DNA of 64,000 bases. It comes from an uncultured Pseudomonadota bacterium. GTDB lineage: Bacteria; Pseudomonadota; Alphaproteobacteria; Rs-D84. Position numbers and translations under genes: made by a program. Positions 54,231 to 64,000 of the stretch are shown here, piece after piece (position 1 is the first letter of the stretch; every line of letters starts with the position of its first letter). Under the pieces are notes generated by a model. The model searched no databases. It worked only from the letters and a program-made list of their open reading frames with translations, and was not told where the DNA came from. The DNA lies in contig OOHM01000002.1 in assembly GCA_900320405.1 (NCBI GenBank), forward strand, positions 236,461 to 300,460, given 5' to 3'.

Positions 54231-56210
54231 ATGAAATTTTCATTGGGTATTTTGTGTGGTGTTTTGTGTGCCGCGTTTATTGCGCCGGCGGTGGCGAATG
54301 TTGCCACAACGGCGGGGTCTAATTTGACCGCATATCACGGTACGGGTTCAACGAACAACAATCAATGGAACACTTTGATGACCGGGCGTGGCGGAATGTC
54401 AGCGACCGCGGCGGATGCGAATTTTGGAAACTGTAATGCGGTGATTCTGCGGTGTGCGTCGCCAAAATGCAGTGGTGGCGGGTGTTATGATATGAATGTT
54501 GCGCGTCCGATTGTTGCGGGTTGTGTGAATTCGAACGCGTCGTGCAAGAAACATGGTGATGCGTTGATTGATTATATCACTGCCCAGATTGTGGCACAAT
54601 CAAACGCAAAGCAGCAAGAACAGGCGAACGCCGTCGCGTTGGCCCAGGCACAGGCCGAAGCCCAGGCCGCCGCATCTGCGGCCGCCGCCGCGCAAAGTAA
54701 TGCCCAAATGCAGCAAATGCAACAACAGATGCAGCAAATGCAGGAACAGATGGCGGAATCTATGTCCGCGATGCAGCAACAAATGGCGGCGCAAAGCGAA
54801 TCGCAAAACGCACAAATTCAATCTGCGTTGGACGCGCAACGCGAAAATATGGCGGCATATAATGCACCGGCAAATAATGGCGATACGGGTGCGGTGATTG
54901 CGGGACTGGAGGGTCTGTCGGTGGCGGAACAATTGGCGGCGAAAAACGGAATCAGTGCCGATATTTTGGTGCGCGAACAAATGGGTGGCAAAATTGAAAC
55001 CGCAATAGAAGACGCAATGACCGCGATGAAAGATTTAAAGGGTAAATTGGATGCGGTTTTGGAATACGCGGGTTGTGACCCGTCGGCAACGAACTGCACG
55101 GGGCCAAAGCGCGTGAAAAAATTCAAAGATTTGGCAAATGAATTCTTTGACCCGTATGAAAATGTTGTGGAAAATGTCTATGATGCGTTGATATTGGCAA
55201 TGACATTGGGTATAGATGTGAACGACGTTATTATGTTGTTGTCTGATTCATGTAATATGTGGGGTAAATACGTGTGTAATTCTTGTCAGTATAGCAATCC
55301 ATTGCCGGCGGGTTGTACATGCTTTGGTGAAGATGACAGAAGTAATTGTTATTATCGTGTTGAAACAGACAACGAAGGCAAGGTTTCCAAAAATCAAAAA
55401 AATTGCCGATTGGTTAGCATCTTAAATGAAAAAGATACGGTATGGCGCGAATGGATTGACGCGAACACCGGTATGACCGGTTCGACCCAGGTTGCATGTG
55501 CGTCTGATGTTGTTATGAATATACCAATGTTCCGCGGAATGAAGAAAAATGCAACAATGGATATTGATAACCTGCGCCGGTTGGTGAACCAAGATTCTTA
55601 TTCTTGCCGTGGAAAAATGGACAGTGGCAATTTTGTATTGACCAATCGTGATGCGATTGAAGATTGTGGTTTGAATATGTGCGCGGTAAATCCAAACGAA
55701 AATTCCGAGGCATATAAACTGCTGTACGATACTGTGCGCACCCGTAAATTACCCAAGGTTGACAAGACGGCAAAATCGTTGTGCTGGGAAACTTTCGATG
55801 ACGCCCCCCGCAGTGTTAAGAACATAGACCCGACGGTGGTTTCGATTTTGGATGCAGGCTGTGCTGTATTTAATTTCTCTCAGGAGTTGTGTGATAGCAG
55901 ACAAGACTGTATTTATGATTCCAATGCAAAAAAATGTGTTGCGAGTGCGGGATATAAAATAAGTGCTAAATCGATTTCCACTAGCGAAGCTATTGCAAAG
56001 TACGGTGTGGTAGATAAGTTAGAGGCACGAGATGTTGTTGTGGATAAGAATCTGTCTGCGGGTGATATGCCAGATATGTCGAAGTTTAGGAATTTTGCAG
56101 ATTGTTTAGCAAGTATGACGTTGTATTTTGCTGATATGAATGATGGGTATACGAATGCCAATGCGGGCAGTGAAGCGCAGGACTTTTGCAATCAATGGTA
56201 TAGTAGATGA
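54231..56210 (+). CDS. Large secreted Cys-rich protein with Q/A-rich coiled-coil segment (659 aa)
   Basis: Signal MKFSLGILCGVLCAAFIAPAVA. N-terminal C-x7-C-x4-C-x5-C module. 'QMQQMQQQMQQMQEQM' tract. About 35 Cys. Confidence 0.6.
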   Translation: MKFSLGILCGVLCAAFIAPAVANVATTAGSNLTAYHGTGSTNNNQWNTLMTGRGGMSATAADANFGNCNAVILRCASPKCSGGGCYDMNVARPIVAGCVNSNASCKKHGDALIDYITAQIVAQSNAKQQEQANAVALAQAQAEAQAAASAAAAAQSNAQMQQMQQQMQQMQEQMAESMSAMQQQMAAQSESQNAQIQSALDAQRENMAAYNAPANNGDTGAVIAGLEGLSVAEQLAAKNGISADILVREQMGGKIETAIEDAMTAMKDLKGKLDAVLEYAGCDPSATNCTGPKRVKKFKDLANEFFDPYENVVENVYDALILAMTLGIDVNDVIMLLSDSCNMWGKYVCNSCQYSNPLPAGCTCFGEDDRSNCYYRVETDNEGKVSKNQKNCRLVSILNEKDTVWREWIDANTGMTGSTQVACASDVVMNIPMFRGMKKNATMDIDNLRRLVNQDSYSCRGKMDSGNFVLTNRDAIEDCGLNMCAVNPNENSEAYKLLYDTVRTRKLPKVDKTAKSLCWETFDDAPRSVKNIDPTVVSILDAGCAVFNFSQELCDSRQDCIYDSNAKKCVASAGYKISAKSISTSEAIAKYGVVDKLEARDVVVDKNLSAGDMPDMSKFRNFADCLASMTLYFADMNDGYTNANAGSEAQDFCNQWYSR

Positions 56211-56944
56211 AACAAAAAATGAAAATTTTTAATGTTGTTTTTGGTGTGCTGATATGCCTGGCGCCGGTTGGTGCGCGTGCCGCCGGTGATTTTGAATGTG
56301 GTTATTTTAATCCGGCGTTTGGTCTGTGTTCAACTCATTCGCATAATATTGGTGCGATGGACGATAAAACAAATTTACCGGTGAATCCGACAAAGTCGGA
56401 AGAAACCGCACAAATGAATGATGTTATCGCGTTGAAGTCTACGGTTATTGCGCAACAATTAAAAGAACAATATGATGCGTTGAACGCCGTTATTAAACGT
56501 TTCAAAACCCAATTGGAAAAGGCCGTTTTGACCAGTAAGATAGAGGTCATCACCGGCAACACCGCATCCGGCAATTCTGGCGGTGGCGCATCTGCATCCA
56601 GTTCATATAACAACAATGGATTGGCCAATGCCGAAGATTGTGATAATGTTTTAGATATGGCGAATGTTTATGATTGTCTTAATCGTAATTTAACCAAGAT
56701 TTCCCAGGCGGTGGATAATGATTTATCTGGTGCACGTAAACAGTTGAAGAATGATATTAAGGTAATGGACGGTTACAAGGTTTGTGGTGATTCCACATCT
56801 GATTGTATTAGTGATGCAAGTTGCAAAAGTATAGATGGTAGTAAAAACAACATAAAAGAATGTGTCAAAGCGTTACAAAGAAGACTAAAGGTTGCAAAAA
56901 ACGATTTTGATAGAAAGAATGCCCAGGCGCGTTATGGCCGTTAG
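56207..56944 (+). CDS. Secreted Cys-containing coiled-coil protein (245 aa)
   Basis: Overlaps the previous stop (atga). Signal peptide. Gly/Ser tract. C-x4-C-x5-C motifs. Confidence 0.55.
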   Translation: MKQKMKIFNVVFGVLICLAPVGARAAGDFECGYFNPAFGLCSTHSHNIGAMDDKTNLPVNPTKSEETAQMNDVIALKSTVIAQQLKEQYDALNAVIKRFKTQLEKAVLTSKIEVITGNTASGNSGGGASASSSYNNNGLANAEDCDNVLDMANVYDCLNRNLTKISQAVDNDLSGARKQLKNDIKVMDGYKVCGDSTSDCISDASCKSIDGSKNNIKECVKALQRRLKVAKNDFDRKNAQARYGR

Positions 56945-56973
56945 AAAACCGCTGCTTAAAATTACACTATTTC

Positions 56974-62282: not shown

Positions 62283-62312
62283 AAATAAAAAACCGTCCAC
62301 GGGGGACGGTTT
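62283..62312 (-). terminator. Rho-independent terminator for the upstream minus-strand gene
   Basis: On the minus strand, 'ccgtcc cccgt ggacgg' plus T6. Confidence 0.55.
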
Positions 62313-62335
62313 AAGGGACACCAAGCCAAACTTTC

Positions 62336-64000
62336 TTATTCTATACGAAACGGACAATCCGCCGGATTCATATACTGGGTCACTTTTGCCGCACGTGGAC
62401 GGCATTCGTTTATCCGTGTGTGGTATTTGCACGCGGTGGATACCAACATTGATGCCGGTGTGTATATAACACGTGCAACTTCACATTTTGTTGGGTCGTT
62501 GTTATATACCTGGCACGCATCGTTCCATTCGGTGCAATTTTTTACATTAGGATAATCATCATCCGATGGTGTGTCGGGGTTGACCGGGGTCACCTGACAC
62601 ACGCCGTACGATTGTGCCACCGGCAGGTTTGCGATACATGCACTGCCAGATTTTTTGCACGGATTTTGCACCAAAGTCGTGCTGGACAAATTGCCTGGGC
62701 GATAATTGAACTGGGCTGCCTCGCATTCATCCAAATCTGTGAACAGTGCGCATGTCAATTGCCAATTGTCGCAGTTCGTGACAACCGCCGTCGGTGCCAA
62801 TGTTTGCGGCAATTTCAATGCCCATTTGACATAGAAGTCACGCAGGCGGTCAATCGTATACGATTTACCAAAACCAACCCGTGCAAGGCCGTCTGCCACG
62901 CGGCAATTAATGTTGTTGCGTTCAACAAATGCCGTGATTGCGGTTGCGGTTCCACCAACGGCCGCGCCGGTACCCGCACCAATCAAAGTCGTTTTTACAC
63001 GATTTGATTTTTGACCTTCCAATATATCAATAGAATTGAATATACGTCCCAACATCGCGAGTTCTTTTTCAAATGTTTCTTGGTTTACACAACCTTGCCC
63101 CGTGCCGTGGCAGTATACATCCAACCCGTTTTGACGCGCTTTGTTCAATTCGCGGAATAAACAGTTTTCAACCGCAGATTTAACTTCGCTTTCATTTTCG
63201 TCTGCACATGGACCGTCTTTTGTGCGTAACGCGCTTATAATTTCTTGGATTTTGTTTTCGTCGCAATCGCCACTGCATTCAATATTCCAATCACGTATCA
63301 CGGTCTTTGTACATTCGGTTTGTTCCTGGGTGCGACAAAGTTCCAACGCGGCTTTGCCCGAATTCCACAGGTCATACAATTCGATAATTTCATTGCATTG
63401 TGCCTGGGTCATTGTGCGGTCTGCACTGGACAAAGTTGAATCGATGTATTGATTCAATGGACCAATTTTTTGGTTGTCTTGCAATTTCTTTAACAATTGG
63501 TTCCGCAATGTCTCATTGCTGCATTCAAAGTCGCGGTCGCCGTGACCCGCCAATGCACCGATTCCGGCACCAACCAATGTTCCGCCCGGTATGGCCACCG
63601 CCGCGGTCGTTTTGGTTTTTGGCATTAACGAGAATCCAAACAAATCTTTGTTGCATGTAAATGTCGATCCCGCAGATTGCCATACTTCGGCCATAGTTTC
63701 GTCACCGACCAGACCGAACAGCCAACTGTTCGTGATGGGGGTGTCTTTGTTGTATGCCGCGACGCGCAACAAACATTGTGCACGTTCCGCATCCCAACGC
63801 GCATAGTATCCGCGTTCACCGTCAATGCCGGTGCGGTTTACCTCTACACCCAACGGGTTATTCTTGGTCAATGAATCGTTCAATGCGCTGTTGTATGCAC
63901 CAACGCGTTGGTTGTATTCACTGGTCACACGGTCGGAATCAGATACTGCGTCAAACGCAACGCCGTATGTGTTCCGGTCCAACAACAGACAGGTGTTTTC
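62336..64000 (-). CDS. Large Cys-rich secreted/membrane protein with two glycine-zipper segments (N-terminus outside the window)
   Basis: The ORF is open at the window end. 'AAVAIPGGTLVGAGIGALAGHGD' and 'LIGAGTGAAVGGTATAITAF' glycine zippers. Many Cys. Confidence 0.55.
   Translation of the reverse strand, partial: ENTCLLLDRNTYGVAFDAVSDSDRVTSEYNQRVGAYNSALNDSLTKNNPLGVEVNRTGIDGERGYYARWDAERAQCLLRVAAYNKDTPITNSWLFGLVGDETMAEVWQSAGSTFTCNKDLFGFSLMPKTKTTAAVAIPGGTLVGAGIGALAGHGDRDFECSNETLRNQLLKKLQDNQKIGPLNQYIDSTLSSADRTMTQAQCNEIIELYDLWNSGKAALELCRTQEQTECTKTVIRDWNIECSGDCDENKIQEIISALRTKDGPCADENESEVKSAVENCLFRELNKARQNGLDVYCHGTGQGCVNQETFEKELAMLGRIFNSIDILEGQKSNRVKTTLIGAGTGAAVGGTATAITAFVERNNINCRVADGLARVGFGKSYTIDRLRDFYVKWALKLPQTLAPTAVVTNCDNWQLTCALFTDLDECEAAQFNYRPGNLSSTTLVQNPCKKSGSACIANLPVAQSYGVCQVTPVNPDTPSDDDYPNVKNCTEWNDACQVYNNDPTKCEVARVIYTPASMLVSTACKYHTRINECRPRAAKVTQYMNPADCPFRIE

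Follow-up and report, generated by a model that had tools for sequence, protein, structure and literature searches.

Exported Cysteine-Rich Protein Families with Paired Cysteines Encoded around rpoA-rplQ in the Alphaproteobacterial Order Rs-D84

Toward the end of the stretch of DNA that we have analyzed, 64,000 nucleotides (nt) of contig OOHM01000002.1 from an uncultured member of the alphaproteobacterial order Rs-D84 (hereafter called the window), lie four genes for cysteine-rich proteins that we designate B (54231-56210, forward strand), C (56207-56944, forward strand), D (59226-62159, reverse strand), and E (62336-64000, reverse strand). A preceding inspection of the letters and open reading frames (ORFs), called here the sequence-only reading, had correctly located these genes, including the fact that E runs off the end of the window, and had interpreted them, together with an ORF near the start of the window that we designate F (917-2203), as one lineage-specific family of exported proteins linked by disulfides. 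The feature is real, has not been described previously, and is more extensive than that reading had seen; the notion of a single family and the membership of F have been dropped, and the function that we infer for the proteins is discussed further below. The main new result is a matter of numbers: The cysteines of B-E vary in count among homologues yet almost always remain even, and very probably essentially every one of them takes part in a disulfide bond. We regard this parity as the key result of the analysis.

B, C, D, and full-length E all possess Sec-type signal peptides with cleavage sites of the A-x-A type, and none of them has a lipobox, as the cysteine of the signal peptide is not preceded by G, A, or S. 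Cysteine accounts for 3.7-4.6% of the residues of B-E, versus 0-1.3% in the ribosomal proteins, RpoA, SecY, and EF-G/Tu encoded in the same window, which bears out the high content that had been noticed by eye. Over 1378 ORFs drawn from the window and 82 related loci, cysteine contents fall into two modes, one below 1.5% and another at 3.5-5%. When cysteines are counted on the mature proteins, with the signal peptide removed, the number is even in 33 of 34 D homologues of a first set and in 101 of 107 of a larger one (34-40 cysteines), in all B homologues of two overlapping sets (34/34 and 31/31; 24-38 cysteines), in all 47 full-length E proteins (20-36 cysteines), and in all nine C proteins (6 or 8 cysteines). 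Low-cysteine ORFs from the same loci, taken as control, comprise 166 with even and 190 with odd counts. Across the families there are at least 17 distinct even count states, a result that is hard to obtain by chance. Counts that are even and yet vary imply that cysteines have been gained and lost in pairs, as expected of residues joined in disulfides; signal peptides and parity thus support the proposal that the proteins are exported and disulfide-bonded.

The cysteines of these proteins are also arranged in a regular manner, for C-x6-C is their dominant spacing, 5.7 times commoner in the cysteine-rich ORFs of the 82 loci than in shuffled sequences. D contains 11 such pairs versus 1.4 expected, a number that none of 5000 shuffles reached, while E contains four versus 1.15 (P 0.02), B three versus 1.1 (P 0.09), and C one versus 0.29 (P 0.26). 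The pairs tend to come in twins, namely 68/75 with 98/105 in B, 117/124 with 153/160 in E, and 386/393 with 427/434 in D. In AlphaFold2 (AF2) models of B and D, built from 34-sequence alignments, most of the C-x6-C cysteines are placed in helices.

Architecture of the Four Proteins

Protein B has 659 amino acids (aa) and 28 cysteines (4.2%), 26 of them in the mature form. Its signal peptide (residues 1-22) is followed by a conserved stretch that is modeled with low confidence (23-62), a putatively Cys-stapled helical N-domain (63-130), a Q/A-rich coiled-coil hairpin (106-209), a conserved helical region (231-337), and a variable, cysteine-rich C-terminal half. The twin C-x6-C module of the N-domain (54432-54545, forward strand) has the form C68-x6-C75 ... 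C98-x6-C105, with C80 and C85 in between, and all six cysteines are invariant in 34 homologues, the alignment of which contains 13 invariant cysteine columns. In the AF2 model (mean predicted local distance difference test, pLDDT, 61.2), these cysteines lie in a confident three-helix N-domain (63-130, pLDDT 72-92), beyond which the chain forms a long coiled-coil hairpin and then a mixed C-terminal half. Disulfide partners were sought in B through the co-occurrence of variable cysteine columns, a signal that proved too noisy in the variable C-terminal half. The Gln-rich stretches that the sequence-only reading had attributed to B and D alike are evident in B, where residues 138-197 include 21 Q; in D the enrichment is mild, the best 60-aa window containing 11 Q. 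Over 1300 homologues of B occur in databases; where named, they are called "hypothetical protein" of uncultured gut or rumen Alphaproteobacteria. Gene C, the start of which overlaps the stop of B by 4 nt, encodes a protein of 245 aa with a signal peptide and nine cysteines (3.7%), eight in the mature form, and it directly follows B on the same strand in all 12 loci holding both genes.

Protein D is the largest of the group (977 aa, 38 cysteines, 3.9%). It begins with a signal peptide (1-19) and a disordered linker rich in T, A, and R (20-112), continues with a mainly helical, cysteine-rich ectodomain that contains the 11 C-x6-C pairs (113-830), and ends with a hydrophobic Gly/Ala-rich hairpin (845-897) and a small cysteine-containing beta domain (905-977). 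The AF2 model of D (mean pLDDT 61.7) is about half helical, with the small beta domain at the C-terminus, and the alignment of its homologues has 34 invariant cysteine columns. Hence, the positions of many cysteines in B and D are invariant across orthologues. The N-terminal module of D (61737-61811, reverse strand), the site that had been compared with B, reads C117-x6-C124-x4-C129-x9-C139-x-C141, all invariant. Two further modules, C320-x6-C327-x6-C334-x6-C341 (CTVQFKQCMQTTGGCGDDFSGC; 61137-61202, reverse strand) and C496-x6-C503-x6-C510-x6-C517 (CTREFKQCLTSEDRCGADYTQC; 60609-60674, reverse strand), belong to an internal duplication of residues 320-348 and 496-524 (hhalign 96%, E 2e-9). The hairpin (59469-59627, reverse strand) resembles a glycine zipper and consists of about 55 aa rich in G, A, and V, with a peak Kyte-Doolittle hydropathy of 2.17 over 19 aa; its sequence is poorly conserved and its hydrophobic character is kept. 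Of 34 aligned sequences, 25 have odd cysteine counts on either side of it, namely 33 or 35 N-terminal and 3 or 5 C-terminal to the hairpin, a distribution that fits a disulfide across it and a location of both its ends on one side of the membrane.

A promoter-like region and an AGGGGG ribosome-binding site precede the TTG start of D, and a terminator-like hairpin (59178-59197, reverse strand) follows its end. More than 1000 database homologues share 46-93% identity with D and, where named, again are hypothetical proteins of uncultured gut or rumen Alphaproteobacteria; a profile search at E <= 0.001 retrieves 909 clusters at 50% identity. The closed genome OZ007020.1 carries two full-length D paralogues in tandem (L050:7283-13047). 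In the window and its closest relatives (loci L004-L006, L028, and L052), D and rplQ occupy opposite strands, and in L001, L002, L026, and L062 they share one; the D genes compared in L001 and L002 are at 10001-12988. A GIY-YIG gene intervenes between D and E in L001, and local inversions are frequent around what is otherwise a fixed neighborhood.

The part of gene E that is present in the window encodes the C-terminal 554 aa of a protein of about 768 aa: In an alignment with a 768-aa orthologue it covers residues 207-768, no stop occurs before base 64000, and the N-terminal portion of about 206 aa, with the signal peptide and an RMP[ST][MI]P motif, lies beyond. There are 25 cysteines in the listed 549-aa ORF and 26 in the 554-aa fragment (4.6%), including four C-x6-C pairs, and the C-terminus contains a duplicated six-cysteine unit starting with NCxxWxxxC. 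Two glycine-zipper segments of 21-22 aa, with the pattern GxGxGxxxG, are found about 190 aa apart at 63545-63610 (TTAAVAIPGGTLVGAGIGALAG, hydropathy 1.66) and 62930-62992 (TTLIGAGTGAAVGGTATAITA, hydropathy 1.21), both on the reverse strand, the second of which gives weak matches below cut-off to PF13441 and PF05433. Glycine-zipper segments had been noted in D and E by the sequence-only reading and likened to the anchor of the Rickettsia 17-kDa antigen; the segments do exist in both proteins, whereas the likeness stays under threshold, since E reaches 11.5 bits with PF05433 (cut-off 24.2) and 15.2 bits with PF13441 (cut-off 28.9) and D has no match. A terminator-like hairpin (62290-62312, reverse strand) follows E and is in turn followed by the promoter-like region of D.

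The distribution of cysteines along E is instructive with respect to its topology. In each of 48 aligned sequences, corresponding to the 47 counted for parity plus a duplicate of the reference, the number of cysteines is odd before the first zipper (9 or 17), even between the zippers (4-14), and odd after the second (7 or 13). By this count the middle region would form its disulfides within itself, whereas the N- and C-terminal regions of E are probably linked by one bond, as is probably the case in D too; all three soluble regions appear to sit in an oxidizing compartment. It would follow that the zippers do not cross the membrane in alternation.

A side observation concerns the motif mentioned above, R-M-P-[ST]-[MI]-P, which almost all full-length E homologues have 20-40 residues past their signal peptide (e.g., L001:13611-15917, residues ~45-70). 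The motif recurs in a neighboring family of about 560 aa and in at least four other cysteine-rich families, is rare in D (two RTP variants), and is absent from B save for one C-terminal match that looks like chance. It could be a shared signal for sorting, processing, or attachment.

Genomic Setting and Searches for Known Relatives

The genes lie among core genes of the cell. SecY (51274-52593), rpsM (52742-53119), and rpsK (53184-53561) form the end of a ribosomal-protein gene cluster upstream of B, C, and a small gene that we designate A; rpoA (57073-58101) and rplQ (58324-58899) fall inside the range originally delimited for the feature and are not part of it. D is adjacent to rplQ/rpoA, in either orientation, in 57 of the 82 loci, and E lies near D in 59 of them despite frequent rearrangement. 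The insertion of A-B-C between rpsK and rpoA is restricted to closer relatives. Identity among homologues of the cluster proteins is 22-81%, versus 84-97% for rpoA. Because a promoter-like site serves rpoA itself, terminators close both D and E, and the cysteine-rich genes in general have promoter- and terminator-like signals of their own (weakest for B-C), these genes probably constitute separate transcription units rather than passengers of the ribosomal operon; cotranscription with that operon is unlikely for B-E, though the sequence immediately before B yielded no consensus promoter.

Gene A (53780-54100, forward strand) encodes an exported protein of 106 aa with a signal peptide. Three terminator-like hairpins separate rpsK from its promoter, which is a perfect sigma-70 promoter (TTGACA-16-TATAAT, 12/12; 53725-53752, forward strand), and a strong intrinsic-terminator-like hairpin of 11 pairs, eight of them G-C, followed by a T run, lies behind the gene (54130-54155, forward strand). 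These flanking signals indicate that A is monocistronic and exclude its cotranscription with the ribosomal operon; judging from them, the region 53567-54155 looks like a very highly expressed monocistronic gene. The core PVRVKTHTEVIDHYQVYxPVTVYxPAGTY is kept across the order, and an A-like gene stays beside rpoA, on either strand, in distant relatives too. A was also considered as a cysteine-dependent member of the group and rejected, given that its four cysteines (two CxxC) are not conserved; its counts are even in 19 cases and odd in nine. It accompanies the cluster and is not a C-x6-C protein.

In all, at least seven families of cysteine-rich exported proteins cluster around rpoA-rplQ across the order. 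Besides B-E, clustering of the ORFs yields neighboring families with signal peptides of about 560 aa (44 loci), about 290 aa (35 loci), and about 720 aa (22 loci), plus several smaller ones. In the family of about 720 aa, a Pfam OmpA peptidoglycan-binding domain (E 2.7e-17) occurs together with a CarboxypepD_reg-like domain, a glycine zipper, and cysteine-rich repeats. The class is thereby connected with the periplasm and the region of the outer membrane, locations to which this neighbor points no less than to the cell surface.

Other genes of the vicinity may be mentioned here. A conserved protein of about 341 aa (57 loci; L052:6277-7326), poor in cysteine and without Pfam match, has transmembrane helices at its N-terminus and a linker that is acidic or proline-rich; in most genomes its gene and one for a DUF3419 protein adjoin E, beyond the end of the window. 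Another exported cysteine-rich family without Pfam match occurs within the window at 23168-23695, 29351-29749, and 29820-30593, with the N-terminus MRIPILTFGAIASILTINSV.ADT.VTS..YVD.E.AKKQ; the first copy ends in the knottin-like CIGQGGSCSDASQCCEGLGCWGGTC, and a homologue directly follows D in L002 (13174-13704). Two small paralogous ORFs with 4-5% cysteine and no Pfam match (19047-19418 and 19434-19799) precede a phage-type integrase (19818-20822). At 34526-35293 and 35445-36263, two tandem paralogous proteins with signal peptides, probably outer-membrane barrels (weak DUF5777 match), have no cysteine at all, in sharp contrast with the cysteine-rich class.

As to the organism, genes for TolB, MltG, and an OmpA-like barrel in the window show it to be a diderm with peptidoglycan. 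Enterousia, a member of the GTDB order Rs-D84, has genomes below about 1 Mb that lack respiration, the tricarboxylic acid cycle, most biosynthesis, and the standard transporters for sugars, amino acids, and peptides, while retaining RodA, MreB, and MrdA and therefore peptidoglycan machinery; it lives in association with a host, a dependence on a partner organism has been predicted for it, and "hypothetical membrane-bound proteins" have been named as a likely key to its way of life (PMC12306168). The sequence-only reading had made a role in host interaction conditional on host association, for which there is thus published support. A scan of one genome per species retrieved 379 pattern-matched stretches encoding D relatives, mostly in metagenome-assembled genomes (MAGs) from rumen, feces, and cecum, with one closed chromosome of 958,618 bp; nearly all bear labels of gut or rumen Alphaproteobacteria or of Enterousia, and many that of Candidatus Enterousia. 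Two loci, L059 and L074, show an rpsK-rpoA-D neighborhood of Enterousia type under bin titles of "Bacteroides fragilis" and "Muribaculaceae", which probably reflects mis-binning. The lineage specificity proposed at the outset holds, for B and D each have more than 1000 homologues and all of these come from uncultured gut or rumen Alphaproteobacteria, Ca. Enterousia, or MAGs labeled "Rickettsiales".

None of the proteins B-E matches a known family. No Pfam or NCBIfam family reaches its curated cut-off with them, PHROGs gives no match, and profiles of B, D, and E retrieve nothing with E < 0.1 among all PDB sequences; the AF2 models of B and D match no PDB fold. There was no significant match to known adhesins, autotransporters, or components of type IV secretion systems (T4SS), by either sequence or fold, and in the literature on Enterousia, Rs-D84, and Cx6C we found no description of these proteins. 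The impression that no known family could be recognized by eye has therefore survived systematic searches, and neither of the two outcomes that the sequence-only reading had named as refuting it, a match to a well-characterized family or a lack of conserved cysteine patterns in orthologues, has come about.

A Proposed Envelope Layer Weighed against Its Rivals

What could such proteins be for? The explanation that we favor, with a probability of about 0.6, is that B-E and their neighbors form a disulfide-reinforced layer of the envelope, in the periplasm, at the outer membrane, or on the surface, that also contacts the partner cell. The proteins would be exported through Sec and fold in an oxidizing compartment with essentially all their cysteines paired. 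The building element would be a helix carrying C-x6-C, with its two cysteines on one face (i, i+7); two such helices are probably stapled side by side by two disulfides, to judge from predicted secondary structure, and the outcome would be long, rigid helical rods or bundles that are expected to resist proteases. D is probably held at the membrane by its Gly/Ala-rich hairpin, with both ends on the same side, and E would carry its two weaker glycine-zipper segments amid three oxidized soluble regions. These proteins would then join the three or more cysteine-rich exported families encoded nearby outside the window, including that with the OmpA peptidoglycan-binding domain, in a presumably abundant structural layer that most likely stabilizes the cell and mediates contact with the partner organism.

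Various points weigh against this explanation. Six of the 107 D homologues have odd counts, and the sequences used for parity are mutually related, so that the counts lack mutual independence. Confidence in the AF2 models is only moderate (mean pLDDT ~61, predicted template modeling score 0.29-0.43), and the hydropathy of the E zippers (1.2-1.7) is marginal for membrane insertion. No gene for DsbA, DsbB, or a thioredoxin-fold protein was found by motif scan of the window and three loci or by phmmer over the window and the 82 loci, and no VKOR either, a result that we list even if it is uninformative, since the material covers about 7% of a genome plus syntenic loci. An anaerobe without a respiratory chain, moreover, would need some other means of oxidizing the several hundred cysteines in each set of proteins. 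Lastly, the connectivity of the disulfides, the membrane involved, and the abundance and function of the layer are things that we infer.

A bolder version of the same idea can be formulated, in which at least seven orphan families with twin C-x6-C, several routed by RMP[ST][MI]P, would build a lineage-specific disulfide "exoskeleton" or attachment organelle, oxidized by a pathway that works in the anoxic gut without quinones or a respiratory chain, and would thus let a bacterium of less than 1 Mb live on another cell without standard transporters. This scenario we consider rather unlikely.

The main rival sees the clustered proteins not as a passive layer but as subunits of one new trans-envelope machine, which could be a contact-dependent device for uptake or secretion that draws metabolites from the partner cell. 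Such a machine would account for the persistence of at least seven clustered families through many rearrangements, in company with the 341-aa membrane protein found in 57 loci, and would suit genomes that lack standard transporters for sugars, amino acids, and peptides in organisms for which a partner-dependent lifestyle has been proposed (PMC12306168). The RMP[ST][MI]P motif common to E and several cysteine-rich families could then be an assembly or sorting signal, and D and E do have membrane-associated segments. However, the cluster lacks genes for an ATPase, a secretin, a pilin, or any further part of a motor or channel, the searches of Pfam, NCBIfam, and PDB brought up no similarity to type II, IV, or VI secretion systems or to pili, and the long coiled coils and variable cysteine-rich tails look structural. 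On balance, a machine of this kind appears improbable.

The second rival is the original proposition, according to which one family has expanded in the lineage and B, C, D, E, and F are its paralogues, now diverged. The proteins do have in common their composition, the C-x6-C spacing, and a layout of signal peptide, linker, and cysteine-rich helices, with a zipper in D and E; D has tandem copies in the closed genome of L050, and a module of about 30 aa is truly shared between D and two neighboring families. A profile search with this module (consensus DLGSCTTEFKKCMQTTDKCGEDFSKCAGDADFD) brings up a family of 500-690 aa with two copies and one of about 290 aa, with 7% cysteine, that has a single copy (E 1e-5 to 1e-11 for the 562/688-aa and 289-aa proteins), both of which are encoded near D in other genomes, outside the window. 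Within the window, however, the profile detects only D, and not B, C, or E. BLASTP among A-F gives E values of 0.26 or more, and hhalign yields 1.9% for D versus B and 12% for E versus D. The N-terminal cysteine module that had been reported as common to B and D is invariant in each protein, but its first spacing is C-x6-C and not the C-x7-C originally read: The sites are C68/75/80/85 in B (C-x6-C-x4-C-x4-C) and C117/124/129/139 in D (C-x6-C-x4-C-x9-C). A pattern of this sort arises in about 1.1% of shuffles of either protein, and the iterated profile of the D module, run over the 1378 ORFs, links neither B nor the N-terminus of D (E > 100). We consequently treat it as a shared spacing, without demonstrable homology.

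The ORF F fares no better as a member of the group, having no C-x6-C and no consistent parity (78 even, 38 odd), for which reasons we exclude it; it stands apart as a well-conserved exported orphan that has nine near-invariant cysteines and 512 homologues, with identities of 53-87%. At the sequence level, therefore, common descent is largely refuted and looks very unlikely. Since neither BLASTP nor profile-profile comparison links B, D, and E, the four proteins B-E are best described as four separate families specific to the order, which constitute a class of like composition and design rather than a set of paralogues.

It could also be argued that the cysteines bind metals such as Zn or Fe-S clusters, in proteins of redox or metal-storage function, because some sites have regular four-cysteine spacings (C-x6-C-x6-C-x6-C) and an anaerobe is not expected to form disulfides easily. 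Yet the proteins have Sec signal peptides, their cysteine counts step by two and not by four, including 6, 10, 14, 26, and 38, cysteines at i and i+7 on one helix face are ill-placed to chelate a single metal, and neither CxxCH or ferredoxin-type motifs nor matches to Pfam metal domains were found, so that metal binding is highly improbable. An origin from a prophage or mobile element, as tail fibers or surface-exclusion proteins, might be suspected from the phage-type integrase in the window and the plastic gene order around the cluster, but is effectively refuted by the lack of PHROGs matches and of any relative in 2.9 million viral contigs, by the location beside rpoA/rplQ in nearly all genomes of the order, and by a guanine-plus-cytosine content equal to that of the surroundings.

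Returning to the proposed disulfide-reinforced layer, its biological interest derives from the nature of the organisms. Rs-D84/Enterousia bacteria are widespread in the guts of humans, livestock, and poultry, with genomes among the smallest of gut Proteobacteria. In a genome of about 900 genes, proteins of 250-1000 aa that are present order-wide, with their own signals and beside rpoA, must be central to the biology of the cell. The twin C-x6-C staple offers a concrete structural principle for families of no known fold, and the question arises: How does an anaerobe devoid of a respiratory chain oxidize hundreds of cysteines? From a practical viewpoint, we put forward B-E as candidate surface markers, or as handles with which to enrich, image, and in time coculture these organisms. 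Even if their role turned out to be ordinary, several large unannotated protein families are now defined, D alone with its 909 clusters.

Comparison with Known Systems

One parallel is the OmcB/OmcA/MOMP complex of chlamydiae. As with B-E, its members are cysteine-rich (~4% or more) exported proteins of the envelope, considered to be stabilized by disulfides, in a partner-dependent diderm with a reduced genome, and a large and a small cysteine-rich protein are encoded together. Nevertheless, B-E have no sequence similarity with OmcB, are mainly helical with C-x6-C, include no lipoprotein, and contain glycine-zipper segments; no match of OmcB or OmcA type was seen in Pfam/NCBIfam at E <= 1 or in the PDB profile searches. 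The chlamydial system is further marked by intermolecular cross-linking and a developmental cycle, and the organism of B-E by the possession of peptidoglycan machinery (MltG).

At the level of structure, an analogy can be drawn with the twin CX9C and CX3C (CHCH) proteins of the mitochondrial intermembrane space, which likewise present paired CxnC motifs on helices and fold in an oxidizing compartment outside the cytoplasm. A CHCH-like staple, with antiparallel helices joined by two disulfides, is suggested by predicted secondary structure for C68/C75 with C98/C105 in B and for C117/C124 with C153/C160 in E. Unlike the CHCH proteins, B-E have a spacing of 6 throughout instead of 9 or 3, are bacterial and very large, contain many modules per chain, and share no sequence similarity with them.

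The hydrophobic segments of D and E may be compared with those of the Rickettsia 17-kDa antigen, SlyB, and Pcp (PF05433), of YMGG-like proteins (PF13441), and of YiaD. Common to all are short hydrophobic segments rich in G and A, of GxxxG type. In the known proteins they associate a periplasmic protein with a membrane and leave both flanks on one side, as may be the case in D and E; the combination of glycine zipper and OmpA domain known from YiaD recurs in the neighboring family of about 720 aa. The differences from 17-kDa/SlyB/Pcp lie in the scores (11.5-15.2 bits for E versus cut-offs of 24-29, none for D), in the lack of a lipobox, and in the attachment of cysteine-rich domains of hundreds of residues.

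A last comparison comes from eukaryotes. The variant-specific surface proteins of Giardia are rich in CXXC, have a single transmembrane anchor, and undergo antigenic variation. Whereas B-E are bacterial, spaced by C-x6-C, and conserved within each family, with one or at most two copies per locus, they recall the Giardia coat in being dense, disulfide-bonded proteins of the surface or envelope in an anaerobic inhabitant of the gut, where by analogy they could plausibly confer resistance to proteases and bile.

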